DNA of 64,000 nt. Source: Bryobacterales bacterium. GTDB lineage: Bacteria; Acidobacteriota; Terriglobia; Bryobacterales; UBA6623. Location: positions 3,876,050 through 3,940,049 of the forward strand of contig OZ243965.1 in the NCBI GenBank assembly GCA_965214655.1, given 5' to 3'. Below, piece after piece: positions 2 to 62,370 of the stretch. Under the pieces are notes generated by a model, which was given only the letters and a program-made list of their open reading frames with translations, did not search any database and was not told the origin of the DNA. The position numbers were made by a program, and so were the translations under genes. Positions within the stretch are counted from its first letter, which is position 1; each line of letters starts with the position of its first letter.

Positions 2-967
2 CTGGCCATCTCCGGCACCGGCACGGCGGGCATGGAAACCGCGGTCATGAACTTCGTCGAAGCCGGAACCAGGGTGGCGATGTTCGCCAACGGCTACTTT
101 TCCGACCGCTTGACCGAGATGTGCGAGCGGCAGGGGGCGGAGGTCGCGCGCCTCGAAAAACCTTGGGGCGAAGTCTTCGGCGACGATGAAGCGCGCGCGT
201 TCATCGAGCGCGAAAAGCCGCAGGTCGCCGCGTTCGTCCATGCCGAGACGTCCACCGGAGCCCTGCAGCCGGCGAAAGCGATCTGCGACGCCGCGCACGA
301 GGTCGGCGCGTTGGTGATCGGAGATTGCGTGACCTCGCTGGGCGGCATGCCCGTTGCAATCGACAAGAACGGCATCGACATCGCCTACAGCGGCACGCAG
401 AAATGCCTCAGCGCCCCTCCGGGGCTCTCTCCGCTGACCCTTTCGCCGCGCGCGCTCGAACGGTTGCGCGCGCGCAAGAGCCTTTGCGTGTCGTGGTACC
501 TCGACCTGAAGCTGATCGACGCCTATTGGGGAGAATCCCACCGCTACCACCACACCACGCCGATCAACATGTTCTACGCGCTGCGGGAAGCGCTGCGCCT
601 GTGCAAGCTGGAAACGATGGAGGCTCGCTTCGCGCGCCACCGCCTCAACCACCGCGCTTTCGTCGCGGGCATCGAAGCGCTGGGCATGCATATGCACGTG
701 GCCGCCGAGAATCGCCTGTGGACGCTGAACACCCCCGTCCTGCCCGCGGGCGTCGACGAGGCGGCGCTGCGCAAGCGACTGCTGAACGATTTCGGCATCG
801 AGGTGCTGGGCGGTTTCGGGCCGCTTACGGGCAAGATCCTGCGCATCGGTCTGATGGGCGCCTCGTCGCAGCGTCACTATGTCCTGCTCCTGCTGCAAGC
901 CCTGGAAACCTGCCTCGGTGCGAGCGGCGGCGCCCGCGCGGCCGAAGCCGTGTACGCGGGCGGCTGA
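2..967 (+). CDS. Class V aminotransferase (alanine-glyoxylate / serine-pyruvate aminotransferase-like); 5' end lies outside the window
   Basis: The frame of ORF 32..967 stays open to the window edge (LAISGTGTAGMETAV...). The SGTQKCLSAPPGLSP block, with the PLP lysine in SGTQK, is typical of AGXT/SPT-type enzymes. Confidence 0.8.
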   Translation: MAISGTGTAGMETAVMNFVEAGTRVAMFANGYFSDRLTEMCERQGAEVARLEKPWGEVFGDDEARAFIEREKPQVAAFVHAETSTGALQPAKAICDAAHEVGALVIGDCVTSLGGMPVAIDKNGIDIAYSGTQKCLSAPPGLSPLTLSPRALERLRARKSLCVSWYLDLKLIDAYWGESHRYHHTTPINMFYALREALRLCKLETMEARFARHRLNHRAFVAGIEALGMHMHVAAENRLWTLNTPVLPAGVDEAALRKRLLNDFGIEVLGGFGPLTGKILRIGLMGASSQRHYVLLLLQALETCLGASGGARAAEAVYAGG

Positions 968-1102
968 CGCCGCCCGGTTGCGCCGGCGTTTTTGTTACCA
1001 AGCTCCAGGGCCGTTCGCCTATGTAGTGTGGTCCTGTCTCTGCCTGCAAATGAACCTTCCGAGTCGTCTGCTTTCGGTGCGAACCGCGGTCGGGGCGGGT
1101 CG

Positions 1103-3805
1103 TTGACGCCGCCGGCGTTGCGCCGTCTTGCTATCCGTTATCCGCTATCCGCTATCCACTGGGCGGCGTCAGCCGCGCTTGCCGCGCTGCTCTGCGCTTC
1201 TCCGCTCGGTGCCCAAGGCCAGGAATCGCCGGCCGCGCAATCCGCCAACGGCGACGCGGCCGGCGGCGAATCCGAAGCGGACGCGCCGGCTGCGGTTGCG
1301 GAGGTTTCCGCCGACCGCACCGAGCTCAACCTGCTGGGCGAGGTCGACAGCGAGCGCGGCGAGGGGCGGCGCAACGAAAATCTCGGCCTCACGCTCATCG
1401 ACAACAACGTCCTGCGCGATCTCAACGAGCGGCTGGGAACCACGGCCACGCTCGTGCGTGACTCGAAGATCGAGCAGAGCTACTGGGGAACCGAGCTCGG
1501 CGGCCCCCCGTCGCGCCCGCTGCATCTGCCGCCCGCCCGCGCCGCGGCCGTCCATGGAAACCTGTTTTGGACGCACAACAACAGCGTCTTCAGCGCGCGC
1601 TCGTTCTTTCAGGTCGGCGGGGTTCTGCCGGCGCGGTCGAACGATTACGGCTTCTCGGTCAGCGCGCCGCTCTGGGACGGGGCCGCCTTCACCGTCGACG
1701 GCAGCCAGGGCAAGAATCGCGGTCAGGTCAACGGCAACGTGCTGGTGCCGGCGCTCGACGAACGCACCGCGCTGACCAACGACCCGCGCGTGCGCCCCCT
1801 GGTCGAGCGCATCCTGGCGGCGTTCCCCGCCCAAACGCCCAACCGCACCGATATCAACAAGCGGGCGCTGAATACGAATGCGCCGCAGGATATCAACAAC
1901 AACCGCCTCTCCGGCAAGCTCGATCAAAGCCTCGGCGACAGAGACCGCGTCACCGCCGGCTACAACTTCGTCCGCCAGCGCGTGGACGCCTTTCAGCTTG
2001 TCGGCGGGCAGAACCCGAACACGACGACCCAGAACCACCAGACCCGTCTGACCTGGAACCGCAGTTGGACGCCGGCCACGACGACCGATTTCACCGCCGG
2101 CTTCGACCGCGTAGGCTCGGCGCTGGTTCCCGACGAAACCTCCTTCGGGGCGTGGATCCGCATCGGCGGAGAGCTCACGAGCCTGGGGCCGCCGGGGCGG
2201 TTTCCGGTGGACCGCGCACAGAATCAATTCCGCTACGCCGTCCGCGCCAAGCACGTTCGGGGGAAGCACAATCTGACTTTCGGGTTCGCCCTCAGACGCC
2301 GCCAGGTCAACGGCGCGGAATTTCAAGATCACCGCGGGCTCTTCGTTTTCCGCCGCAACTTCGGCCTGGACGGCGTGACGAGCCTTCGCTACGGAAGGCC
2401 GAGCCGCTATCTCGTCGCCATCGGCAGCATTCATCGCGGCTTTCGCAATTGGCTGACCCAGACGTACGTCGGCGACGACTGGAAAGCGACTCAGAATCTG
2501 ACTCTGAGCGTCGGGCTGCGCTGGGAGCCGGTCACGAGGCCGACCGAGGTGAACGACCTGACCCAAGTCGGTTACAACTCCGATCTCAACAACTTGGCCC
2601 CGCGGTTCGGCCTCGCCTATCGGCTGCCGGGATGGGGAGGCGTCCTGCGCTCGTCCTACGGCGTGCATTACGGCGAGGTTTTCACGGCAACGTACATCCA
2701 GGCTCGCCTGAACCCGCCGCAGAACGTCTCGGTCGATGTCCAGGCGCCGGACTTGGCGGATCCCCTCGGCGGACTGGATGCGAGCGACATCGACCCCAAC
2801 GCCCGTTCCACGCGCTACACGCTCGCCCCCGATCTGGCGACGCCTTACACGCACAACTACAATTTTTCATGGGAATTGGAGCCGGCCCGCGATTGGAAGC
2901 TCGAATTGGGTTACGTCGGCAGCCGCTCGCACAAGCTGCTGGCCATGTGGTATCTCAACCGGGCGCGGCCGGTGGAAGGGACGTCGCAGACGACGCGGAC
3001 GGTGAATCAACGCCGCCCCGACCCCACCGTCTTCGACGTCCGGCACGTGACCAACGGCTCGCGGGGTTACTACGACGCGGCGAAAATCCGGCTGCGCATC
3101 CCCCAATGGGCGGGGTTCGGCATCGAAGCGTCGTACTGGTACAGCAAAGCGATCGATCTCGGCGGGAGCTATCTCAACACCGCGGCGAACGCCAACCGCC
3201 TGCAGACCATGGGCCCGTCCGAGTTTTTGATTCAAGAGGAGTTGCGCGGGCTGAGCAATTTCGATCAGCCGCACGCCATGCTGTGGAACGTCAGCTACCG
3301 CACTCCCGCGTTGGCGGGCCGGGCGCGGCAACTGTTCGGCAACTGGCAGCTCAGCACGGTGCTCCTGGGCAAGTCGGGCACGCCGTTCTCGGTGCTTTCG
3401 GGATCGGACGCGCCGGGTTTCGGCAACGTCGACGGGACGCAGAACGACAATCCGACTCTGCTCGATCCGTCGATTCTGGGCCGCTCGATCGACCATCCGG
3501 ATACGGCGGCCGAGCGGCTGCCCAAGTCGGCGTTCGGCTTCATGCAGCCTACCGAGGCGCGGGGCAACCTGGGACGCAACACGTTCCGCAGGGACGGCAT
3601 CTTCAACATCAACATGGCCCTGTCGAAGCGTTGGACGCTCTCGGGCGATCAGTCGATCCTGTTGCGTGCGGAATCCCTGAACGTCACCAACCACCCCCAG
3701 TTCGCCGAGCCTGGCAACGGCATCGCCTTCGCCAACTTCGCTCAGATCACCAACACGTTGAACGACGGCCGGACGTTCAAGTTCACGCTGCGCTACAGCT
3801 TTTGA
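1103..3805 (+). CDS. TonB-dependent receptor-like outer-membrane beta-barrel protein
   Basis: Long ORF 992..3805. An in-frame TTG at 1103 gives a signal-peptide-like N-terminus (...AALAALLCASPLGAQG). Barrel-like sequence ends ...TFKFTLRYSF with a terminal aromatic residue, as in TBDR/OMPs. The start is uncertain. Confidence 0.7.
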   Translation: MTPPALRRLAIRYPLSAIHWAASAALAALLCASPLGAQGQESPAAQSANGDAAGGESEADAPAAVAEVSADRTELNLLGEVDSERGEGRRNENLGLTLIDNNVLRDLNERLGTTATLVRDSKIEQSYWGTELGGPPSRPLHLPPARAAAVHGNLFWTHNNSVFSARSFFQVGGVLPARSNDYGFSVSAPLWDGAAFTVDGSQGKNRGQVNGNVLVPALDERTALTNDPRVRPLVERILAAFPAQTPNRTDINKRALNTNAPQDINNNRLSGKLDQSLGDRDRVTAGYNFVRQRVDAFQLVGGQNPNTTTQNHQTRLTWNRSWTPATTTDFTAGFDRVGSALVPDETSFGAWIRIGGELTSLGPPGRFPVDRAQNQFRYAVRAKHVRGKHNLTFGFALRRRQVNGAEFQDHRGLFVFRRNFGLDGVTSLRYGRPSRYLVAIGSIHRGFRNWLTQTYVGDDWKATQNLTLSVGLRWEPVTRPTEVNDLTQVGYNSDLNNLAPRFGLAYRLPGWGGVLRSSYGVHYGEVFTATYIQARLNPPQNVSVDVQAPDLADPLGGLDASDIDPNARSTRYTLAPDLATPYTHNYNFSWELEPARDWKLELGYVGSRSHKLLAMWYLNRARPVEGTSQTTRTVNQRRPDPTVFDVRHVTNGSRGYYDAAKIRLRIPQWAGFGIEASYWYSKAIDLGGSYLNTAANANRLQTMGPSEFLIQEELRGLSNFDQPHAMLWNVSYRTPALAGRARQLFGNWQLSTVLLGKSGTPFSVLSGSDAPGFGNVDGTQNDNPTLLDPSILGRSIDHPDTAAERLPKSAFGFMQPTEARGNLGRNTFRRDGIFNINMALSKRWTLSGDQSILLRAESLNVTNHPQFAEPGNGIAFANFAQITNTLNDGRTFKFTLRYSF
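1131..1158 (+). repeat. Four tandem 7-bp units (CTATCCG TTATCCG CTATCCG CTATCCA) inside the predicted signal-peptide region of the receptor gene
   Basis: Read directly from the sequence; it encodes AIRYPLSAIH. Confidence 0.7.
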
Positions 3806-3825
3806 AACGACGGCAGTCCGCGGTT

Positions 3826-3849
3826 CTTGCCGCCCCGCGCAGCGGCAAG
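3826..3849. terminator. Possible bidirectional hairpin between convergent genes (CTTGCCGC-N8-GCGGCAAG)
   Basis: An 8-bp perfect stem lies between the receptor stop (3805) and the ArsC-like stop (3850). There is no clear T-run. Confidence 0.3.
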
Positions 3850-4188
3850 CTAGAGCTCGCCGAGCGCCTCGCTGTCGAATCCCAGCACGATCTTCCGCCC
3901 TGCAACAGCCACCGGCCGCTTGATCAGATTGGGATTTTCGGACATCAGGCGCAGCGCCTCTGCGCGCGGCGGGGGATTTTGTTTCATTCCCATTTCGCGG
4001 TAGAGGGCGTTGCGGGCGTTCAGGAACTGCTTGTAGTCGCGCTCGCCGATCAACGCTTCGAGCGCTGCGACGCTGAGACCCTTGTTGAGATCGATCAACT
4101 CCAGCTCGGCGCCTCGTTCCGCCAGGAAACTCCTGGCCTTGCGGCAACCGGTTCAACCGGGTTTTTGGTAGAAGCGGATTTTGGCCAT
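3850..4188 (-). CDS. ArsC/Spx-family thiol-redox protein with an in-frame UGA (putative selenocysteine) replacing the first Cys of the CxxC motif
   Basis: The minus strand from ATG 4188 reads MAKIRFYQKPG-TGA-TGCRKARSFLAERGAELELIDLNKGLS... and runs in frame into track ORF 3850..4098. The N-terminus aligns by eye with Spx/ArsC YxxPxCxxCRKAxxxL. The C-terminal ...NPNLIKRPV...GF block also fits the family. Confidence 0.65.
4121..4137 (-). promoter_or_regulatory. SECIS-like stem-loop (GCCAGGA-GUU-UCCUGGC), 15 nt downstream of the in-frame UGA at 4153..4155
   Basis: Perfect 7-bp stem with G and U in the apical loop, read directly. Its position is comparable to bacterial SECIS elements. Confidence 0.45.
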
Positions 4189-4323
4189 CCCCCGAGTTTA
4201 CCGCGCCCGCCGCCGCCAATCCCTCAACGGCATGACTCCCCTCCGGCGCATCTGTAATTTCCGGCCTTCAGAACCCCATGGATTCAGACGTGATCCTTCC
4301 CATCTCTTGCCGGAACCGCACGC

Positions 4324-5478
4324 CTAGCTTGCGGGGGCGGCGCCTGTGGATGCGGCGGACAGCCGGGACAGACGAAAGCGCCGGATGTTCCAACTTGACG
4401 GCCGGTCCAGACAGAACTCGGCTACGATCTTGCCGATCACGCTGCAAAATTTGAAGCCGTGGCCCGAGAAACCGGTCGCCACGAATACGTCCGCCTCTCC
4501 GGGGCAGCGGTCGAGAATGAAATGTTCGTCGGGGCTGTTGGTAAACAGGCATGCCCGGAGTTTGCGGGCCGGTCCGTTGGCGGCCGGAAAATACTCTGCG
4601 ACGGCTTCGCGCAGAACCGCCTCGTCCGCGGCGCCGCATTCGCGGTCCATTCGGTCCGGATCGTCCACGTACTGCCGCAAGTGGTGGCATTTGCCGATCT
4701 TGAAGCCTTCTCCCCGATGGTCGGGGAAGCCGTAGAAGCGCCCGGACGGCGCTTCCAGAACGAAGACCGGGAATCTTGCGGGCGCGAAGAGCGCGGGCTC
4801 CGTCGGAACGGTCCACAGCATGACCTGTCTCTCCGGCCGGCACATGTCGCGCAGCGGCGGGCACAGCTTGTCGGTCCAGGCCCCAGCGGTAATCGCCAGG
4901 CGCGCGGCGCTGTAGCTCCCTGCGTCGGTCTCGACGCGCAGGCCGCCGGCGTCTCGGCGCCAACTCCGCACGCGTTCTCCGGCGTGGATCTCGGCGCCCC
5001 GGGCGCGGGCGGCCTCGGCATAAGCCGCGATGGCCAGTTCGGAAAGCAGATACCCGCTTTGGGCCTGATAGACGGCGCGCGCGGAGGCCGGCAGGCGGTA
5101 GCCGGGAAACCTGCGGTTGACTGCGTTGCCGTCGAGTTCCTCGAACTCCAACCCGTGGGCCAGACACGATCTCCGGGAGCCTTCGACCGTCCAACTGTTT
5201 TCGGGGCCGACGTCGAGTCCGCCGGTGAGGCGCAGGATGGATTTTCCGGAGACCGCCTCCAGTTCCCGCCAGTAGGCATAAGCGGAGCGCAGCAGCGGGA
5301 CGTACTCGGGGCCCTCGGCATACCCCAGGCGGATGATGCGGGTCGAGCCGTGCGACGAGCCGTAGCCATGCGGGATGTCGAATTGCTCGATGCCCAGCGT
5401 CTTGAGGCCGCTGCAAGCAAGGTGAAACACGGCGGCGCTGCCCATGCCGCCCACGCCGATGACAATTGCGTCGTACAT
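4324..5478 (-). CDS. solA: FAD-dependent N-methyl-L-tryptophan / monomeric sarcosine oxidase family protein
   Basis: N-terminal dinucleotide-binding motif MYDAIVIGVGGMGSA, followed by the GYGSSHGSTRIIR block typical of SolA/MSOX. Confidence 0.8.
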   Translation of the reverse strand: MYDAIVIGVGGMGSAAVFHLACSGLKTLGIEQFDIPHGYGSSHGSTRIIRLGYAEGPEYVPLLRSAYAYWRELEAVSGKSILRLTGGLDVGPENSWTVEGSRRSCLAHGLEFEELDGNAVNRRFPGYRLPASARAVYQAQSGYLLSELAIAAYAEAARARGAEIHAGERVRSWRRDAGGLRVETDAGSYSAARLAITAGAWTDKLCPPLRDMCRPERQVMLWTVPTEPALFAPARFPVFVLEAPSGRFYGFPDHRGEGFKIGKCHHLRQYVDDPDRMDRECGAADEAVLREAVAEYFPAANGPARKLRACLFTNSPDEHFILDRCPGEADVFVATGFSGHGFKFCSVIGKIVAEFCLDRPSSWNIRRFRLSRLSAASTGAAPAS

Positions 5479-5486
5479 GGCCGGGT

Positions 5487-5801
5487 TCAGAAGCGGGCGC
5501 TGGAGGCGGCCATGACGGGAATCTTCAAGATCCGCTCCCGGTTCAGCGCTCCCGAGAACGCCGGCATCCCGTTGCCGCCTTGCAGCGCCTTGTCGGCGAA
5601 CCGGCTGGAATCGAGGCGGGTCGGGAAGAGACGCGGGCCGCCGCCCCCGCCTGGTTTATGGCGGGCGATGCGGCGCGCGCGGTGCATGCCCGCCGCATTC
5701 TCGAGTTCCGCGAGAGTTATGGGTCGGGCCGGGACGGGCGGCGCCGAAACCGCCTGCGCGGCAAGCAGTGCGCCGAGCGCTGCAATGGAGCGCGACAACA
5801 T
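5487..5801 (-). CDS. Small secreted cytochrome-c-like protein whose heme-attachment motif reads RIARH instead of CxxCH
   Basis: Signal peptide MLSRSIAALGALLAAQA. The layout RIARHKPGGGGGPRL...GGNGMPAFSGALNRERILKI mimics class I cytochrome c (CxxCH...GP.L...MPAF). Both Cys positions are CGC codons. Confidence 0.45.
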   Translation of the reverse strand: MLSRSIAALGALLAAQAVSAPPVPARPITLAELENAAGMHRARRIARHKPGGGGGPRLFPTRLDSSRFADKALQGGNGMPAFSGALNRERILKIPVMAASSARF

Positions 5802-14185: not shown

Positions 14186-15454
14186 ATGTCGTTCTTTGGC
14201 CCTTTTCCGCCTATCTTGCTGCTCGCGGCCGTTATGGCGGGCTGCGGCGCGCCCGAGAGGGGTAATTTCGAAGCGGTCGGAAACGGCTGGCCGCGCCACG
14301 TCATCGACGATTCCTCGTTCGGCGCGGACGGCGTGCGCATGGGCGACATCGACGGCGATGGCCGACTCGACGTCACCTCTCCCTGGGAGCAGGGCGGGCT
14401 GGTGCGGGTTTACCGCAACCCGGGCGCATCCGGGTTGCGCGAGCGCTGGCCGGCCGTCACCGTCGGGGAAGTCGGCGACCCCGAAGATTCCTTTTTCGTC
14501 GATCTGGACGGCGACGGCAACCTCGACGTCGTCAGCTCGTGCGAGGGCGACACGCGCGCGATTTACGTTCATTGGGCGCCGGCGGACCGCTCGCGGCTGC
14601 TGGATGCGGACGCCTGGACGACCGAAGAGCTCCCCGCGGCCGCGGGCACAGGCCAATGGATGTTCGCCTTCGCCATGCAAGCGGACGGCAAAGCGGGTGT
14701 CGATCTCGTCGCGGGATCAAAGGGTGAGGGCGCCGCGCTCGGCTGGTTTGAGGCACCCGAGAACCCCCGCGATCTCAGCGCCTGGCGCTGGCGGCCGCTC
14801 TATCGGGCCGGCTGGCTGATGACTCTGCGCCCGAGCGACATCGACGGCGACGGCGATCTCGATATCGTGGCGACCGACCGCAGGGGCCCGCGCCGCGGCG
14901 CTTTCTGGCTGGAGAATCCCGGCGCAGCCGCGGCGGCCGCTGCGCCCTGGACGGAACATCGCATCGGCGCCGTGAATGCTTACGAGGCGATGCACAATGC
15001 CGTCGCAGACCTTGACGGCGACGGCCTGGAAGACGTGCTCGTCGCCGTCAAGGGCGGCCCCCTTCGCTATCACCGCCGCAGCGGGCGTTTGCCGCCGGCG
15101 TGGGAAACCCACGCCATTGCGCTGCCGCCGAACGCCGGCGGCGGCAAGGCCGTCCAAGCGGCCGACATCGACCTCAACGGCCGGCTGGACCTGGTCGTCT
15201 CCTGCGAGCATGCGACCGACGGCAAAAGCGGGGTCGTCTGGTTGTCGTACGACCGCGAGCCGACGGAGGAGCGCTGGCGCGCCACGTCGATCAGCGGCCC
15301 CGACGGCTTCATTTTCGACTTGGTGCGGATCATCGACCTCGACGAGGACGGCGACCCGGACGCGGTCACGCTGGAAGAAAAGGGGCCGTACCTGGCGCGC
15401 GGTTACCAGGGCAGGGAACTGGGAGTGGTCTGGTACGAGAATCCGGCCCGCTGA
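14186..15454 (+). CDS. FG-GAP/VCBS-repeat lipoprotein
   Basis: Lipobox LLLAAVMAGC. Repeated Ca-binding-like motifs DIDGDGRLDV, DLDGDGNLDVV, DIDGDGDLDIV, DLDGDGLEDV, DLDEDGDPDAV. Confidence 0.8.
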   Translation: MSFFGPFPPILLLAAVMAGCGAPERGNFEAVGNGWPRHVIDDSSFGADGVRMGDIDGDGRLDVTSPWEQGGLVRVYRNPGASGLRERWPAVTVGEVGDPEDSFFVDLDGDGNLDVVSSCEGDTRAIYVHWAPADRSRLLDADAWTTEELPAAAGTGQWMFAFAMQADGKAGVDLVAGSKGEGAALGWFEAPENPRDLSAWRWRPLYRAGWLMTLRPSDIDGDGDLDIVATDRRGPRRGAFWLENPGAAAAAAAPWTEHRIGAVNAYEAMHNAVADLDGDGLEDVLVAVKGGPLRYHRRSGRLPPAWETHAIALPPNAGGGKAVQAADIDLNGRLDLVVSCEHATDGKSGVVWLSYDREPTEERWRATSISGPDGFIFDLVRIIDLDEDGDPDAVTLEEKGPYLARGYQGRELGVVWYENPAR

Positions 15455-15474
15455 AAGCCGCCCGAACAGCCTTT

Positions 15475-16869
15475 TTACGTCTGGAAATGCTTTTGAACCA
15501 CGTCTTGAAAAAACCGTTTGCATATATTGTCAATTTTATATGGTCGAGATGGCCCAGAAGATGAATATGATTTTTCTATAAATCTCTCGTTTTTTTGCTT
15601 ATACCCAATTTCAATTATATTCGGAATATTCGACTGGGAATGTGAAAGAACAGAAAGGCGCTCATAATGAAAAGAGCCGACAGGATTTTCTCGTGCAATA
15701 TGCAGGGTTACATCTGTGTCAGCTTTTAATTCATAGGATGGTGATCCGAAAAAAAATAAATAACGGGCGGCTTTATTTTCTCTTTTAAAATCTACTCTAA
15801 AAAACCAAGTTCTTTTGGTGGATTTTCCGTTTCGTAACCCCAGGTACTTCTCAAATTCAAGTTGCCCAAAATCTCGAACCCAAATACGACCTGCATTACT
15901 AGTTTCATCTATAGATTTCGCGATTTGTACAAAATAGCTTTTTAATAATTCCATAGCATTTTTCCAAACTTCGTACTCATTCCTCGCATGAATAATTGCT
16001 TGTTCTGAAAAACTTGCAGCAAGTGAGGCAGCCCATTCTTCGTTTTCTTGTTGTCTTTTTGCAGCTTCTTCATATTCTTCTAGGCTTTCATAAAGACTCT
16101 CTATTATCAACGCGAGGAACGGTGATAGATCTGAACTTTGAGATATTTTAAGGGCATCGTAATATCGAATTCGGTCCTCTTTTGTGATTATTGCGATAGG
16201 GTATCCATAGCGCATGAAAATGAGATTCATTAAAAGTCTGGCTACACGTCCATTGCCGTCAGTAAACGGATGAATATAAACAAGCCATGTATGTGCCACA
16301 GCAGCCATTAAGATTCCATTCATTGTATTCATTCTATCGACTACAATAGATGATTGTTTCAGCCAATCTCCGAATATTTGCATTTCCGGGGAAACAGACT
16401 CAGGGCGTGGTGGTTCAAAATCTGATCCGCTTATTTTTACTGGAACAGTCCGATATTTCCCAGCATTAGTATCATCAATTCCTTTCAAAACAAAACGGTG
16501 TAACTCCCGAATGTCTATTTCGGAAATAGGATTTTGTAAATCTCCAGCAAGTTGTTCTAGGAAGTCCAGAGCATCTGACAAGTTTTTTGCTTCTGCTTGA
16601 TCTTTTAGAGATTTCCCTGTAATTGTAAGGCCACGCTCGATCACTTGTCTTGTTTCACCAACGGTGAGTTCATTGCCTTCGATAGCACTCGAATGATAAA
16701 TGTTCTTAATCCTAAAGTATCTCCGGATATTGCCGAGTACTTCCGGGCTGAGCGCTCCACGGTCGCGAAGACTTTTCACTCTATCCGCGATTTTTTGAAG
16801 CTTGTCAGTCTGTGATGAGTCATAAGAGTATAGAGTGCCTTCGATATCGATATTGGAGTTCGTGGTCAT
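15475..16869 (-). CDS. Fic-domain protein (putative AMPylase) with N-terminal inhibitory-helix motif and a long unassigned C-terminal region
   Basis: Canonical Fic motif HPFTDGNGRVAR. Upstream SSAIEGN fits [ST]xxxE[GN]. The gene lies in a visibly AT-rich block that contrasts with GC-rich flanks. Confidence 0.9.
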   Translation of the reverse strand: MTTNSNIDIEGTLYSYDSSQTDKLQKIADRVKSLRDRGALSPEVLGNIRRYFRIKNIYHSSAIEGNELTVGETRQVIERGLTITGKSLKDQAEAKNLSDALDFLEQLAGDLQNPISEIDIRELHRFVLKGIDDTNAGKYRTVPVKISGSDFEPPRPESVSPEMQIFGDWLKQSSIVVDRMNTMNGILMAAVAHTWLVYIHPFTDGNGRVARLLMNLIFMRYGYPIAIITKEDRIRYYDALKISQSSDLSPFLALIIESLYESLEEYEEAAKRQQENEEWAASLAASFSEQAIIHARNEYEVWKNAMELLKSYFVQIAKSIDETSNAGRIWVRDFGQLEFEKYLGLRNGKSTKRTWFFRVDFKRENKAARYLFFFGSPSYELKADTDVTLHIARENPVGSFHYERLSVLSHSQSNIPNIIEIGYKQKNERFIEKSYSSSGPSRPYKIDNICKRFFQDVVQKHFQT

Positions 16870-17003
16870 TGCTAATTGTTTCTCCTATGGAGCTTTGATA
16901 TTGCAGGATACCATAGGGGTGTTCCGTTTTCGGGCTGCCCGGTACGCATGGCGTACATTATATTAGCAAGCCGCCGAGTCTGCTCCCGCCTCCGGCGCTG
17001 CGA

Positions 17004-56777: not shown

Positions 56778-58910
56778 CTACCAGTCCTTCTCGACGGGGG
56801 CGATGCGGGCTCTGAGCAAGGCTTGGCGGGCGCGTTTGTCGCGCTTTTCCTTGTCGAGGATATCCGCTGCGGTCATCGCCTGCTTCGCCGAATTTCGGGG
56901 TTGCCGCTGCTGCCCGGAGGGTTGCGCGGGCGGTTGCCGCCGCTGCTCGGCCTGCTGCCCGCTTTGCTCGCCGGCCTGCTCTCGATTGCGTTGGCCGTCG
57001 GCGGCCTGCTGCAACTCCTCGGCTGCTGCTCGCTGCTGCTCTTCGGCTTGCTTGGGTTGATTCTGCTCGAGTTCCTCTCGGGCCTGCCGCTGGCGCTCGG
57101 CGGCGTTGTCCAGATGCTGTTTGGTTTGCGGGTCGGCATCGCGGGCCATTTGCTCGGTTTGCTCGCGCAGGTCTTGCTGTTGCTCGGCCAGCCGCTCGGC
57201 TTGCTGCTGCCGGCGCTGCTCGGATTCGCTGTCTCGATTCCGCTGCCGGTCTTCGTCCAGTTGCTTGCTCTGTTCGGCAAGCTCCTTCTGCCTGTCGGCC
57301 GCTTTTTGCAGATCGCTCTTTTGCTCCCGGCCGGGTTCCTGATTTTGCTCTCCGCCTTGCTGCTGTTGCTGCTGCTCGGCTTTGCGGCGCAGTTGCCGCA
57401 TCAGGCGGCGGGCGATCTCGACGTTGTGCGCGGCGTTGGTCAGGCCGCGGTCGAGACGGAGGGCGTCTTTGTAGGAACGCGCCGCCTTGCCCAGCAGGTC
57501 GATTGCCGCCTGGGGATTCCGCTCGGCGAGTTGCTCGCCTTGCCTGTAGAGCGCGTTGCCCAGGTTGTAGCGCCCGCCGGCTTCCAGATCGGTTCGTCCC
57601 CGGTCGAGGCTCCGTTGCACCGCCTGTTCGTAGGCTTCGACCGATTCGCTGAAATTTTCGCTGCGATAGAGGGCGTTGCCGCGGTTGAGGGCGGCGTATG
57701 CGGAATCGGGGTCTTGCTCGGCGGCCCGGTCGTATGCGGCGATCGCCTTTTCGTACGCCTCTTGCCGGTAGGCTTCGTTGCCCTCGTTGACGAGGCTGCG
57801 CACGGACGCGGCCCGCGCGCCGGAGGGAAACGAGAGCAACGCCGCGGCGATGAGCGCGGCGGCGGCCGGCGGCGTTGCTCCGCGGTTTCGTTGCCGGCGG
57901 GGCCGGCGCTCGCGAAGGAGCATTTCGACCGCCAGCAGCAAAAAGCCGACCGCCAGGAAAATCTGGAATTTTTCTTCGTAGCGGTCGATCGTGCGCGACT
58001 CGATATCCTGCCGCTCGGCGGAGGCGATGAGCTGCCGGTAAACGTCGCCCAGGTCGATGGCGCCCGTGGAAACGTTCAGATAGCGCCCGCCGGGCGTAGC
58101 GTTGACCATTTCGCGGAGAGTCCGGGCGTCGAGCTTCGACCATACTTCCCGGCCGTTGAATTTGAGAAAGGTCATCTCGCCGCCGGCGTCCGTCAGGGGG
58201 ATGCGCCTGCCGACGTTTTCATCGCCAAGCCCGATCGCGATCAAGCGCACTTGCATCTCGCCCAGAGATTTTGCCGCTTCGACCGGAAAGCTTTCGTGGT
58301 CTTCGCCGTCGGTGATGAGCACGACATCGCGGTACTGGCTCTGCTTCTGATCGAAGACGTTGCCGGCGACTTTTCGTAACGCATCCCCGATCAATGTGCC
58401 CCCGCGGGTGACGCTCAGCGGGGAAACGTCGTCGAGCGCCATACGGAAAAAGCCGTAATCGAGGGTGAGCGGGCACTTGACGACGGCGGTCCCGGCGAAA
58501 ACCACCAAGGCCACGCGGTCGCCCTCCAGCTTGTCGACGGCGTCCATGATGGCCAGCTTGGCGCGGTCGAGTCGATTGGGCGCGAGGTCTTCCGCCAACA
58601 TGCTGCGTGAGACGTCGAGCAGGAAGACGACATCGCGGCCGCGTTGCTTGACCGTTTGGGGCAGACGGTTCCATGCGGGGCGCGCCAGAGCGACGACCAG
58701 GAATACGCTTGCCAAGGTGATTGCAATCGCCTTCCAGAAGCGGTTGGCGGCGTTGAGATGGGGGTTCAGTTGCGGCAGCAGGCCGGAATCGACGAAGCGG
58801 GCGAGCGCGTCCCGGCGCTTGCGGGCGGCGTAGTAAAAAAGGACGGCGAGCAAGGGCGTCAGCCAGAGCCAATTGAGCATGGCGATGTCGTGGAAGCGAA
58901 AGCCGCTCAC
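56778..58910 (-). CDS. BatB-like von Willebrand A protein fused to BatC-like TPR region and a long Gln/Glu/Arg-rich tail
   Basis: GTG 58910 overlaps the batA stop (GTGA) and gives VSGFRFHDIAMLNWLWLTPLL. VWA MIDAS motif LLDVSRSM. A second TM, TPR units, then about 190 aa of Q/E/R-rich sequence ending ...PVEKDW. Confidence 0.75.
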   Translation of the reverse strand: MSGFRFHDIAMLNWLWLTPLLAVLFYYAARKRRDALARFVDSGLLPQLNPHLNAANRFWKAIAITLASVFLVVALARPAWNRLPQTVKQRGRDVVFLLDVSRSMLAEDLAPNRLDRAKLAIMDAVDKLEGDRVALVVFAGTAVVKCPLTLDYGFFRMALDDVSPLSVTRGGTLIGDALRKVAGNVFDQKQSQYRDVVLITDGEDHESFPVEAAKSLGEMQVRLIAIGLGDENVGRRIPLTDAGGEMTFLKFNGREVWSKLDARTLREMVNATPGGRYLNVSTGAIDLGDVYRQLIASAERQDIESRTIDRYEEKFQIFLAVGFLLLAVEMLLRERRPRRQRNRGATPPAAAALIAAALLSFPSGARAASVRSLVNEGNEAYRQEAYEKAIAAYDRAAEQDPDSAYAALNRGNALYRSENFSESVEAYEQAVQRSLDRGRTDLEAGGRYNLGNALYRQGEQLAERNPQAAIDLLGKAARSYKDALRLDRGLTNAAHNVEIARRLMRQLRRKAEQQQQQQGGEQNQEPGREQKSDLQKAADRQKELAEQSKQLDEDRQRNRDSESEQRRQQQAERLAEQQQDLREQTEQMARDADPQTKQHLDNAAERQRQAREELEQNQPKQAEEQQRAAAEELQQAADGQRNREQAGEQSGQQAEQRRQPPAQPSGQQRQPRNSAKQAMTAADILDKEKRDKRARQALLRARIAPVEKDW

Positions 58911-59956
58911 GGCGCCCTCCGAAAAACCGTAGCGCGCAAAACCGATTCGCCGGCCAGCAGCAGAAGCGCCGCCAGCGCCCAGGGCATGAAAAGCTCGCGG
59001 TAGTCCAAAAAGCGCACCGCCTCGAACTCGCTCTTTTCCAAGCCGTCGATTTCCGCGTAAACGTCGCGTAGGGAGCCGGCGTCCGTGGCCAGGCGGTAGA
59101 TGCCGCCGGTGGCCTCGGCCGCGGCGCGCAAGGCTTTGTCGTCGAACCCCTGCCTGAACGGCATCGAGAGCCTGCCGAACGGGGTTTGCAGACCGCGTTT
59201 GTCGCCCACGCCGATGGCGTAAATTTTGATCCCCCATTCCTTGCAGAGCTCGGCGGCGTCCTGGACGCTGCGGTCCCCGGCGTTGTTTTCGCCGTCGGTG
59301 AGCAGGATGACGATCTTGCTTTTGATCTCGTAGTCCTGGCGGCTGCCTGCCTTTTCTTGCAGGAACGTTTCGGCCTGCTGGAGTCTGGCCGCGGCCAGCG
59401 CCGCGGCGTCGCCGATTGCGGTTCCGTCTTCATTGGGGTTGTCGGCGAGGCGCACGCTTGCCAGCAGCTCTTCCAACGTGTCGTGAGAGAGCGTCAGGGG
59501 GCAGCTGGTGTCGGCATAACGGGCGAAGGAGATCATGCCGATCAGGTCGTTCGGGCGTCCGGGCATAGCGCCGCTTGCGGGGTCGATGAAATCTCGGAAA
59601 ACTTGCTTGACCGCCTCCAGGCGGGAGACTATGCGGCCGTCGAGCTTCATTTCGGCGCCCATGCTGGAGGAGCGGTCCACGACCATGTGCATGGCGACGC
59701 CGCGCGAAATGTCGCGGATGCGCTCGGCGCCTTGCTGCGGCCGGGCGAGGGCGACGACGATGCCGATGAGAGCCAGCACGCGCAGCAGGCCGGGCAGGAA
59801 GGCGAGGCGCTGCCGCCACGATCCCGCGAGCGCCTCGGCGGCCGCGGTGGAGGAAAAACGCAACGATGCGCGGCTGCCGCGGCGCATGCTGCAGTACGCC
59901 AACGCCGGAACCGCCAGCAGAAGCAGCAACATCCACGGTGATTCGAAGCGCAGCAT
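58907..59956 (-). CDS. BatA-like von Willebrand A membrane protein
   Basis: MLRFESPWMLLLLLAVPALAYC N-terminus. VWA MIDAS VVDRSSSM. C-terminal TM. Confidence 0.8.
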   Translation of the reverse strand: MLRFESPWMLLLLLAVPALAYCSMRRGSRASLRFSSTAAAEALAGSWRQRLAFLPGLLRVLALIGIVVALARPQQGAERIRDISRGVAMHMVVDRSSSMGAEMKLDGRIVSRLEAVKQVFRDFIDPASGAMPGRPNDLIGMISFARYADTSCPLTLSHDTLEELLASVRLADNPNEDGTAIGDAAALAAARLQQAETFLQEKAGSRQDYEIKSKIVILLTDGENNAGDRSVQDAAELCKEWGIKIYAIGVGDKRGLQTPFGRLSMPFRQGFDDKALRAAAEATGGIYRLATDAGSLRDVYAEIDGLEKSEFEAVRFLDYRELFMPWALAALLLLAGESVLRATVFRRAP

Positions 59957-60235
59957 CGAAACTCGGGGCCGAACCTCTTATTTTAAGACCGCCGTCAAGA
60001 TTCTCGGGCGTTCGTTGACTGCGTTCGGACGGGCCGGGTTCAAGGCGCTGTGGGTTCGATGCCGTACTTTGCGCGCAAGCCGGCGGCCGGCCATGCCAGG
60101 TCCGGCGCCGGGGCGAAGGACGCGGCCAGGCGCTGCCAACTCACGCGGCGCAGCAACCCCGGCGCGCGGCAGGCGGCGAGCGCGTCGCGCGCCAACTGAT
60201 AGACCGCGCCGAAGGGGCTAAATTCAAAAACTCTT

Positions 60236-60328
60236 TTTAAGCTCTATTCAAAGCCTCATTATACTGGTAAATCTCTTTGTCTGCCCCTTCTAGATCATCA
60301 TTTAAATCATCCAAACTATTAATATTCA
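60236..60328 (-). CDS. Micro-ORF, 30 aa, acidic (MNINSLDDLNDDLEGADKEIYQYNEALNRA)
   Basis: Not in the ORF track (<60 aa). GGAG-N8-ATG, with a spacer nearly identical to that of the preceding micro-ORF. AT-rich block. Confidence 0.25.
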
Positions 60329-60361
60329 TTACTAATACTCCGTCCCATCCAAATAATTTTC

Positions 60362-60505
60362 ATTATTCAGAATTCTCCTCTTCCCTCAACTTATCCTCAT
60401 CTCTAAGTCTTTTTCTTACTCGAAAAAACTCAACTATAAAACAAATTATAAAAATTATAGGAAAATAAATTGTAAAAGCAAAAGCCCAAGGATTAAATGC
60501 ACCCA
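60362..60505 (-). CDS. Micro-ORF, 47 aa, single TM helix plus charged tail (MGAFNPWAFAFTIYFPIIFIICFIVEFFRVRKRLRDEDKLREEENSE)
   Basis: Not in the ORF track. GGAG-N7-ATG begins immediately after the stop of 60518..61246 (TAAGGAGATTAGTTATG). AT-rich block. Confidence 0.4.
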
Positions 60506-60517
60506 TAACTAATCTCC

Positions 60518-61246
60518 TTATCTATCGGTGATTTCCTCAATGTTCATGTCCGTCGCCATGCATTCGACAACCACGTCGATTTGCGCCTCGATAGCCGAGG
60601 CTTGTGAAGGGCGACGCCAATTACCTGCTGCCCGGTTTTTGAGCCAATTGCGCCACCAGGAAAGAGGCCCTGACACCTGCACAACCGGCGGCGTTTTGGC
60701 ATCTGCCTTGCAGCCGAAGCATTTCCGGGTTTCGCTCGCCAGGACTTCAAGGCTGGCTTCGACGACCGCGGCGTAGCGCAGCCCTTCCATCAGAGCGTGC
60801 ATCGGCGATTGGCCGAGGCCGCTGCGCGGGCATTTCAGTTCGACAACAATTACCCTGCCACGGTCGGTAACGCCGAAGAGATCGACCGCGCGGATTTCGG
60901 AGTCTGCACTCCTTGCCCGGAGCGGGAGCTGATAGTCGAGAAATCGATGCCAGCCGCCATTGGGCCGAGGCCCGAGGCATGCGAGGTTCCAGAACGCCAT
61001 TGCGTAGCGCGGCTCCCACTGAATTTTTGGGGTATCAAGCGGCAATTCCTTGGTTGTCCCGTCATGCCCTACAAAGTACTCTTTTCCGGCATCGCGGCGG
61101 CGCGGCGCGTTTTGCCGCAGCGCCCTGTATTCGGCGGCCAACGCATCCGCATCTACGGAGGCGATAGACTGTTCCAGTCCGGTGGCGGGCCAACAGTCGC
61201 GGTCACGCTTGTCGCGGAACAGGATCGGGCACAATGCGTTATACAT
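60518..61246 (-). CDS. Uncharacterised protein with NucS/DUF91-like PD-(D/E)xK nuclease core
   Basis: 242 aa. IRAVDLFGVTDRGRVIVVELK followed by SPMHALMEGLRYAA resembles the D...(D/E)xK...QLxRY layout of NucS-type restriction-endonuclease-fold domains. The N-terminal ~110 aa are unassigned. Confidence 0.6.
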   Translation of the reverse strand: MYNALCPILFRDKRDRDCWPATGLEQSIASVDADALAAEYRALRQNAPRRRDAGKEYFVGHDGTTKELPLDTPKIQWEPRYAMAFWNLACLGPRPNGGWHRFLDYQLPLRARSADSEIRAVDLFGVTDRGRVIVVELKCPRSGLGQSPMHALMEGLRYAAVVEASLEVLASETRKCFGCKADAKTPPVVQVSGPLSWWRNWLKNRAAGNWRRPSQASAIEAQIDVVVECMATDMNIEEITDR

Positions 61247-61248
61247 AG

Positions 61249-62370
61249 TTGATATATTATGACTATCAAAAGTTTTTTGTCAATCTTCAGCATGGAGCGA
61301 AAATCATTTTAGGCCAAAGACTCAAGCTGTCCCGTTCCGCCGCGGGTTTGTCGCTTCGCGGCCTGGAAGCCAAGATCGGTAACCGGGTGACGGCGCAGGC
61401 GATCAGTAAGTACGAGCGCGGCGAGACGATGCCGCGCGCGGGCGTCCTCGCCGCGCTGGCCGGTGCGCTCGGCGTGTCCGAAGCCTGGCTGACCGGCGGC
61501 CGGAGCATGGTTCTGGAAGGCGTCGAGTTCCGCAAGAAGACGCCCGCGGGCAAGCGGGAAGAAACACGGATCGAGGCCCGCGTGCTGCGCTTGCTGGAAC
61601 GCTATCTGGCGGTGGAAGAGCTTCTCGGCCTGCCGAGCACGGCTTGGGACAAGCCGCGGCAAGCTCCCTGGCCGGTGTTGCGCGAGCTTGCCGAGGTCGA
61701 GTATGCCGCGCGCGGGCTGCGCGCCCATTGGGGACTCGGCCTCAATCCGATCCCCAACATGGCCGAGCTTCTGCAGGAGCGCGGGATCAAGGTTCTCGCC
61801 ATGGACCTCGCCGTCGTGGACGGCTTGACGGCGCGGGCGCGGGGCAGGGACGGCGGCGGCGCGCCCGTGATCGTCATGCACAGCGGGCATTGGGGCGAGC
61901 GGCAGCGGTTTACGCTGGCGCACGAGTTGGGCCACATGGTGCTGGACGTTACCGCCAAGGTGGACGGCGAGGAGGCCGCGAACCGCTTCGCTGCGGCCTT
62001 CCTGCTGCCCGCGGAGACGCTGCGGGCGGAGGTCGGCCGGCGCCGCAAGTCCATCGGCTGGGGCGAGCTTCTCGAGCTCAAGCGGATATTCGGAGTCAGC
62101 GTGCAGGCTTTGCTCTTGCGCTGTCGGGATCTGGGCATATTCGGCCCGACCCTGTTCCAGAAACTGTTCGACGAGTGTGTCCGCCGCGGCTGGCGCAAGC
62201 CGCCGTATCGCGATCCCTGCGCCATGCAAGGGGAGAAGCCCCGGCGGTTCGAGCGCCTGTGCTTCCGCGCCCTCTCGGAAGGCGCGCTTTCCGCGGACGC
62301 GGCGGCCGAATTGCTGGAAATCCCGGTCAGCGCCCTGAACCGTATGATGGAGGAGCCGGCCTCCGAGTAG
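61249..62370 (+). CDS. XRE-family HTH fused to ImmA/IrrE (COG2856, peptidase M78) metalloprotease domain
   Basis: LGQRLKLSRSAAGLSLRGLEAKIGNRVTAQAISKYERGE (HTH_XRE). HELGHMVLD (HExxH). AANRFAAAFLLPAETL. The start (TTG 61249) is uncertain. Confidence 0.85.
   Translation: MIYYDYQKFFVNLQHGAKIILGQRLKLSRSAAGLSLRGLEAKIGNRVTAQAISKYERGETMPRAGVLAALAGALGVSEAWLTGGRSMVLEGVEFRKKTPAGKREETRIEARVLRLLERYLAVEELLGLPSTAWDKPRQAPWPVLRELAEVEYAARGLRAHWGLGLNPIPNMAELLQERGIKVLAMDLAVVDGLTARARGRDGGGAPVIVMHSGHWGERQRFTLAHELGHMVLDVTAKVDGEEAANRFAAAFLLPAETLRAEVGRRRKSIGWGELLELKRIFGVSVQALLLRCRDLGIFGPTLFQKLFDECVRRGWRKPPYRDPCAMQGEKPRRFERLCFRALSEGALSADAAAELLEIPVSALNRMMEEPASE

Follow-up and report, generated by a model that had tools for sequence, protein, structure and literature searches.

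A fused HTH-peptidase regulator divergent from a probable decayed two-nuclease operon in a Bryobacterales genome

What does a regulator that joins a repressor-type DNA-binding domain to a peptidase control when the genes facing it have been cut into by AT-rich DNA? The question is raised by a locus in a 64,000-nucleotide stretch of a Bryobacterales bacterium genome (GenBank assembly GCA_965214655.1, contig OZ243965.1, positions 3,876,050 to 3,940,049), which we call the window and which has a mean GC content of 64%. Here, a gene for an XRE-type helix-turn-helix (HTH) domain fused to an ImmA/IrrE-type M78 peptidase (61249..62370, plus strand) is divergent from an open reading frame (ORF) for an uncharacterised 242-aa nuclease-fold protein (60518..61246, minus strand; hereafter nuc), beyond which lies an AT-rich block with two micro-ORFs. 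A first-pass annotation, made from the sequence without database searches, proposed a self-contained and undescribed module in which the regulator controls the nuclease-fold protein and a small membrane peptide. We consider it probable that the locus is a decayed two-nuclease operon under a repressor-protease switch, in which an AT-rich insertion overwrote most of the second nuclease gene.

The nuclease-fold gene and its lost partner

The closest kin of this region are metagenome-assembled genomes (MAGs) of Bryobacterales (Acidobacteriota), and the relatives compared in this analysis are cited by locus labels (L-numbers). L043 is a syntenic Bryobacterales locus at the same chromosomal site, with the same BatA-BatB-BatD genes alongside, and it has the genes in intact order: a 360-aa XRE-M78 regulator diverges from genes for a 276-aa nuc and a 316-aa REase-ARP protein, which are followed by BatA-BatB-BatD. 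L002, the nearest relative of the locus (88% nucleotide identity), is also syntenic, and L001 is an independent ENA metagenome contig of 1326 nt that is 99.2% identical to the window, with 11 differences. From L043 we infer an ancestral state in which the regulator was divergent from a two-nuclease operon encoding nuc (~270 aa) and REase-ARP (~316 aa).

Most of the second gene is gone from the window. The breakpoints relative to L043 lie at 5714/6470, with 302 bp of AT-rich DNA standing in place of ~755 bp of ancestral sequence, and on both sides the junctions fall within alignable ancestral genes. As a result, nuc lost its last ~35 structured residues and REase-ARP the first ~80% of its sequence, and the truncated nuc now ends at a stop codon supplied by the block. 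What is left of REase-ARP (60040..60218, minus strand) comprises the last ~59 codons, matches positions 265-323 alone of a hidden Markov model (HMM) built from intact partners, and has no start codon; alignment to L043 reveals a further 105-nt internal deletion in this remnant, between two ARxALAAC repeats. With the partner gene gone and nuc truncated, the effector arm in the window appears largely dead. The self-contained, intact module of the first-pass annotation is not supported, the conserved partner of the nuc family having been destroyed by the AT-rich block.

The association between nuc and REase-ARP extends well outside this order. We found the nuc family at 38 genome loci in Acidobacteriota, Proteobacteria, Chloroflexota, Nitrospinota, and other phyla, and at 12 of these a REase-ARP gene (~316 aa; Pfam PF22558, 'Restriction Endonuclease associating with ARP') lies directly 3' of nuc or is fused to it in frame. 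Intact partners score up to 3e-26 against PF22558, with those of L043, L009, and L022 among the genes above the Pfam cut-off. Fusions occur in, among other loci, L012, L031, and L036; the last is from the cultured Antarctobacter heliothermus DSM 11445 (NZ_FZON01000066.1), where nuc and REase-ARP form a single 576-aa ORF (L036 3049..4779). A neighbour scan of the 38 loci turned up REase-ARP as the sole recurrent partner and no additional M78 genes, and there were no ADP-ribosylglycohydrolase or rhodanese-phosphatase genes among the nuc-locus neighbours. Literature searches yielded neither the meaning of 'ARP' nor the source paper of the family; the 'rapidly evolving REase' of ARG-centred systems (PMC9503650) is a plausible origin.

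REase-ARP is also degraded in at least three further loci of the 38. In L002/L003 (6842..7084), it was inactivated by an in-frame internal deletion that leaves an 80-aa ORF, unlike the replacement seen in the window. Decay was independent again in L010 (4329..4625), which carries an internal deletion, and in L029 (4974..6134), where a deletion places a shortened nuc in direct fusion with REase-ARP, itself truncated; in L020 (5799..6736) the gene is split. Apart from L029, nuc stays open in the loci where REase-ARP has decayed.

The nuc protein itself has no Pfam match, nor does any of the 86 relatives that we found carry a Pfam domain. Almost all of these relatives are 265-285 aa long, and alignment shows the window copy ending ~35-40 residues earlier than family members. 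E78, D122, E136, and K138 are invariant in the alignment, giving a D...ExK motif in the constellation of PD-(D/E)xK nucleases, and AlphaFold2 (AF2) models of the window protein (pLDDT 84) and of a full-length homologue, P0008 (pLDDT 94.6), have the expected alpha-beta-beta-beta-alpha-beta order of strands and helices. For both models, the top Foldseek matches in the PDB were all PD-(D/E)xK proteins (NucS 2vld, Shedu SduA, Can2, Exo5, SfsA, EndoMS, and BstEII). This structural search had been proposed together with the first-pass annotation, and although it placed nucleases at the top, all matches were weak (E of at least 0.007, TM-scores of 0.2-0.3). Motif and models together point to nuc being a PD-(D/E)xK nuclease-fold protein, with nuclease activity predicted.

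The first-pass description of a NucS/DUF91-like core holds for the catalytic residues and for a weak structural resemblance, but not for family membership. The D...ExK core is shared with NucS/EndoMS and with Shedu SduA (2vld, E 0.04, probability 0.98; also 8ps4, 8ps5, and 8ti9), whereas the N-terminal ~90 residues and the C-terminal beta-subdomain of nuc have no counterpart in these proteins. We rejected membership in NucS because the family model fails: NCBIfam NF003270 scores 12 bits, over 32 residues, against a cut-off of 216, and there is no Pfam NucS match.

In the full-length model, the C-terminal tail that the window protein lacks forms confident beta-strands (pLDDT >90); since this tail is ordered, the truncation would remove part of the fold. 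Five conserved columns of the family alignment also carry deviating residues in the window protein (L85F, G119R, L192S, L215Q, and G224D), compared to 0-2 in most of its nearest relatives, and G119R adjoins the catalytic D122. We considered the ratio of nonsynonymous to synonymous substitution rates (dN/dS) as a test of pseudogenisation and found it uninformative: pairs involving the window give 0.34-0.39 and other relatives, including a pair with intact operons, give 0.30-0.41.

Many of the genomes with nuc (L004, L018, L021, L023, L024, L026, and others) have bin names (RHO, IRC, SB066x) and taxa (e.g. Poriferihabitaceae) that we take to be typical of sponge-microbiome MAGs; the nuc family could be over-represented among sponge symbionts.

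The divergent regulator and its promoter region

The domains of the regulator are as the first-pass annotation read them. Pfam identifies an HTH_3 domain (61333..61491, plus strand, residues 29-81; 2.1e-12) and a Peptidase_M78 domain (PF06114; 61774..62124, plus strand, residues 176-292; 1.2e-18) whose HExxH motif is HELGH, at 61921..61935. Fourteen PADLOC models of RmrA, an HTH-M78 antitoxin, match the regulator over nearly its full length (best 4.7e-49, residues 23-367), and the capP (9.7e-18) and capH (4.8e-5) models match as well. The PADLOC search that had been suggested for the locus was thus informative for the regulator but gave little for its neighbours: neither nuc nor the micro-ORFs match any model beyond a weak PDC-S11 match. 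With more than 2000 homologues, among them over 100 clusters at 65-70% identity and ~361 aa in length, the regulator belongs to a large and unusually conserved group of fused HTH-peptidase regulators. Its dN/dS of 0.19-0.22 is close to that of the flanking batA (0.17-0.22), a housekeeping-like rate, and indicates that the regulator is still under purifying selection; nuc evolves faster. We also considered metabolic XRE-DUF955 regulators of the ScfR/RamB type and rejected them, as the regulator has no extra C-terminal Pfam domain and its contexts are defence-like.

The 61249..62370 ORF, the longest for the regulator at 373 aa, begins at a TTG codon that is the sole canonical in-frame start in the window and that lies within an operator-like repeat. 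An alignment of start sites shows relatives beginning at an ATG (L043) or GTG (L002) where the window has ATT (61306..61308). TTG 61249 is probably not the real start, and the true N-terminus is likely near 61306. The 2-nt gap between the divergent ORFs reported in the first-pass annotation is therefore correct as read from nuc to the TTG, but it probably does not separate two real start codons, and the nuc ORF on its other side is C-terminally truncated. The start codons of regulator and nuc are 2-59 nt apart.

The operator-like sequence is a 35-nt inverted repeat, TTGATA-N23-TGTCAA (61249..61283), conserved in relatives and a candidate operator. A 34-35-nt repeat of the form TTGA(C/T)-N24/25-(G)TCAA is found upstream of the regulator in six loci that differ in gene context (L044, L045, L048, L002, L043, and the window). 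The shorter repeat noted previously, TTGATA-N9-TATCAA, is present a single time in the window (61249..61269), but it is nested in the 35-nt repeat and its pairing, of the left arm with internal sequence, is not conserved in relatives; the conserved pairing is that of the two outer arms.

This repeat is physically interlocked with a predicted promoter of nuc. A promoter scan identified a sigma-70-like promoter, TTGACA-16-CATAAT (61283..61256, minus strand; 11 of 12 matches), inside the spacer between the two genes, and its TTGACA -35 box is the right arm of the repeat read on the minus strand. The -35 box is kept in all Bryobacterales relatives. The nuc ATG directly abuts the left arm, and the nuc mRNA would be leaderless or nearly so, since only 9 nt lie between the end of the -10 box and the ATG. 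Because the divergent genes have a common promoter/operator region, regulation is plausible, and control of nuc by the regulator is suggested by this arrangement.

M78 metallopeptidases are known to cleave XRE-type repressors upon DNA-damage or mobile-element signals, as in ImmR/ImmA of ICEBs1 and DdrO/IrrE of Deinococcus. The window regulator has the same combination of M78 peptidase and XRE-type HTH; ImmR/ImmA and DdrO/IrrE are two-protein systems for genes of integrative and conjugative elements or of DNA repair, whereas the window regulator is a single fused protein. No integrative and conjugative element, prophage, or repair regulon was seen at the locus, which is flanked by a beta-lactamase-family gene 3' of the regulator, not conserved at that position in L043, and by the Bat operon. 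By analogy with these systems and with CapP/CapH, the HTH domain would bind the 35-nt repeat covering the nuc -35 box and repress both divergent promoters, keeping the operon off, until a DNA-damage or phage signal activated the peptidase; the activated peptidase would remove the HTH, and the nucleases would be expressed. In the lineage of the window, an AT-rich fragment from a presumed low-GC donor replaced ~755 bp, and the effector half has decayed.

Whether regulator and nuc belong together at all is the most serious challenge to this account. The regulator could be the orphaned antitoxin or autoregulator of a cassette of XRE-M78 and DUF3368 genes whose toxin has been lost, and nuc an unrelated gene of the island, outside the regulator's control. 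Conserved linkage between nuc homologues and XRE-M78 genes had been set beforehand as a check on the module, and once run it turned out narrow: the two are linked in 6 of the 38 genome loci, all of them at the same chromosomal site within one clade of Bryobacterales, and nuc occurs without XRE-M78 in the other 32. We also inspected the contexts of five distant regulator homologues, four of which have a conserved, co-directional DUF3368 (PIN-like) gene 3' of the regulator, ~5-12 nt after it where intact; neither the window nor the Bryobacterales loci checked have this gene. Finally, synonymous divergence (dS) of nuc is 0.54-0.83, compared to 0.21-0.35 for the flanks 61306..62370 and 58907..59956 in the same genome pairs, a 2-3x excess that suggests allelic exchange or a separate history of this one gene.

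Against a coincidence stand the promoter region, in which the nuc -35 box is one arm of a conserved repeat and the nuc ATG abuts the other, and the persistence of the arrangement among relatives in the Bryobacterales, at 74-92% identity of the XRE-M78 protein to that of the window. The same subfamily, DUF3368 gene included, is also found facing an established immune operon. In L048, a regulator 68% identical to that of the window and followed by the DUF3368 PIN-like gene diverges, from 147 nt upstream, from a type III CBASS (702..5586) with a cyclase (2.8e-146), HORMA, AAA ATPase, and NucC (1.2e-110). We therefore regard a coincidental juxtaposition as unlikely, if still the strongest of the alternatives. 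The XRE-M78 and DUF3368 pair has the look of a conserved cassette of two genes, present in L048 and L044 as well as in L045 (where it is frameshifted) and L046 (where it is truncated).

Several observations weigh against a decayed operon under a repressor-protease switch. The window regulator has no canonical start codon at the conserved position 61306. Its linkage to nuc is confined to the one Bryobacterales clade, where the juxtaposition could be a historical accident, and the recurrent DUF3368 neighbour, absent here, means that the regulator could be primarily an antitoxin. The mechanism of repression and proteolysis is drawn entirely by analogy, and the immune role is an inference for a pair, nuc and REase-ARP, that is not in PADLOC. 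As for decay, the nuc changes between the window and L001 comprise four synonymous and one nonsynonymous substitution, so that the truncated gene may retain residual constraint.

The AT-rich block and its micro-ORFs

The block (60219..60520, minus strand) is 302 bp long, with 29.5% GC and 6% C on the coding strand, and it is marked by an abrupt drop of ~35 percentage points in GC content. As the first-pass annotation described, it contains two micro-ORFs on the same strand with near-identical initiation regions, GGAGATTAGTTATG and GGAGTATTAGTAATG, which are present as given there. Micro-ORF 1 (60363..60506, minus strand) would encode a 47-aa peptide with a hydrophobic helix and a charged tail, and starts 11 nt after the nuc stop codon; micro-ORF 2 (60237..60329, minus strand) would encode a 30-aa acidic peptide. 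Each is preceded by a Shine-Dalgarno (SD) sequence, GGAG, 8 nt upstream of micro-ORF 1 and 9 nt upstream of micro-ORF 2. In 5000 dinucleotide-preserving shuffles of the block, an SD-preceded 47-aa ORF arose 28 times, and one accompanied by a second SD-preceded ORF of at least 30 aa on the same strand never arose. Strong SD sites, ORF counts beyond those of the shuffles, and a coding strand extremely poor in C together suggest that the block derives from DNA that truly coded for protein in a low-GC donor.

Searches for that donor returned nothing. Comparison of the block with phage and plasmid collections by blastn gave chance-level 40-nt matches only, the degenerate codon patterns of the two peptides had no match in viral (IMG/VR) or JGI metagenome contigs, and a word-index search of 5.8 billion proteins with the peptides produced no candidate. 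An HMMER scan of 1.84 billion representatives gave two spurious matches, the stronger to a long protein in 18 short stretches. For the small membrane ORF, there were sub-threshold matches only, to CLC_0170 (18.9 bits against a threshold of 30) and DUF6773. The block has no terminal inverted or direct repeats beyond chance, no Rfam family, and no terminator-like site. Neither the syntenic loci L002 and L043 nor any other related locus carries it, and none has an AT-rich block at this position.

Taken at face value, the micro-ORFs could mean that one effector was exchanged for another. On this account, an RmrA-like regulator would now gate the truncated nuc, a toxin of 47 aa that depolarises membranes, and an acidic partner of 30 aa, in the manner of RosmerTA. 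The above-chance ORFs are in its favour, as is the position of micro-ORF 1, which would be co-transcribed with nuc from the regulated promoter. RosmerTA toxins are moreover hypervariable; one of them, RmrT-D5, has predicted transmembrane regions and depolarises the membrane (Millman et al. 2022; Ernits et al. 2023, PMC10440598). In L001, micro-ORF 1 is disabled twice, by insertion of one T (a +1 frameshift) and by a GAG>TAG stop, with micro-ORF 2 identical, and the two disabling mutations could reflect selection against a toxic peptide.

The same break, in a contig 99.2% identical to the window, also counts against the exchange, and there are further difficulties: no homologue of either peptide was found in any collection searched, the cassette is in one lineage only, the genes are divergent from the regulator, unlike bicistronic toxin-antitoxin (TA) modules, and the block destroyed a conserved partner gene. 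With no homologue, and with micro-ORF 1 disrupted in L001, the micro-ORF 1 peptide lacks the conservation expected of a small membrane toxin. An exchange of effectors thus seems improbable, and we give equally little credence to its specific form, in which a recent and functional cassette from a low-GC donor is translationally coupled to the truncated nuc. The comparisons indicate that the micro-ORFs are orphan cargo of a lineage-specific insertion rather than conserved components of a module, contrary to the part assigned to them in the first-pass annotation. The abrupt drop in GC content and the lack of any homologue might be taken for an assembly error or chimera, but such an artefact is rejected as highly improbable, since the independent L001 assembly carries the block with both of its GC-rich flanks while differing at 11 positions, and the junctions lie inside alignable genes.

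Two other compositional anomalies were observed in the window. A second AT-rich island (15438..16933, 39% GC) contains a gene for a 464-aa Fic/DOC-family protein (15475..16869, minus strand; Pfam Fic 7.4e-21, motif HPFTDGNGRVARLL), which is probably another horizontally acquired gene. The BatB-like VWA/TPR protein of the Bat operon (ORF 56778..59237) has a long, strongly charged, Q/E/R-rich C-terminal region (~56800..57400, minus strand) that gives rise to an extreme AT skew, to -0.74 on the plus strand.

Relation to known systems and implications

The first-pass annotation was right to describe an HTH-M78 sensor/regulator divergent from a nuclease-fold gene, as both the domains and the arrangement show, but the claim that the module is undescribed cannot be extended to the regulator. 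Fused HTH-M78 proteins beside variable effectors are known as RmrA and as CapH-CapP or its fusion, and L048 places one beside CBASS. CapH and CapP genes lie upstream of, and on the opposite strand to, an immune operon, and fused forms are included (Lau et al. preprint 10.1101/2022.04.27.489752; 10.64898/2026.05.16.725639). The window regulator resembles them in having an HTH repressor domain and an M78 Zn-peptidase, in its upstream position on the opposite strand with a common promoter region, in the operator-like repeat conserved there, to which binding is predicted, and in the placement of its relative in L048 beside a type III CBASS-NucC operon. It differs in that HTH and peptidase are fused in one protein of 354-373 aa, in that the operon here is a decayed pair of PD-(D/E)xK nucleases and not CBASS, and in that its relatives usually have the extra DUF3368 gene. 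Activation by single-stranded DNA, the cysteine switch, and HTH cleavage of CapH/CapP would apply to the window regulator by analogy.

The match to RmrA models over nearly the full length of the regulator is a likeness to RosmerTA. Unlike in that system, nuc is divergent and the regulator has no co-directional adjacent toxin gene, and apart from the weak PDC-S11 match neither nuc nor the micro-ORFs match a PADLOC model. We rejected RosmerTA membership because the operon architecture fails. By sequence, the regulator fits the class of CapH-CapP fusions and RmrA.

To the extent that PADLOC (2023), Pfam, and the searchable literature show, neither the nuc family nor its association with REase-ARP (PF22558), whether as neighbours or in a fusion, has been described. 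We interpret the ancestral system as a protease-gated immune or toxin operon with an undescribed nuclease pair, and the ancestral operon was probably anti-phage. That the intact pair, fused in some genomes, is by itself an undescribed two-nuclease anti-phage system is a more tentative proposal, to which we give somewhat less than even chances.

For the window, the main value of the reading as a decayed operon is corrective, in that the micro-ORFs appear as an orphan insertion and not as a component of the module; were an exchange of effectors true after all, the locus would have caught modular effector replacement in an immune operon in progress. More broadly, the locus draws attention to a subfamily of very conserved fused HTH-M78 regulators with a recognisable 35-nt candidate operator, whose members stand beside effector operons of different kinds, the type III CBASS of L048 in one case and the two-nuclease pair of this locus in the other. 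Across several lineages, REase-ARP has been inactivated in different ways while the regulator was kept. The nuc family, which has no Pfam entry and is recurrently paired or fused with REase-ARP, is a candidate immune effector.

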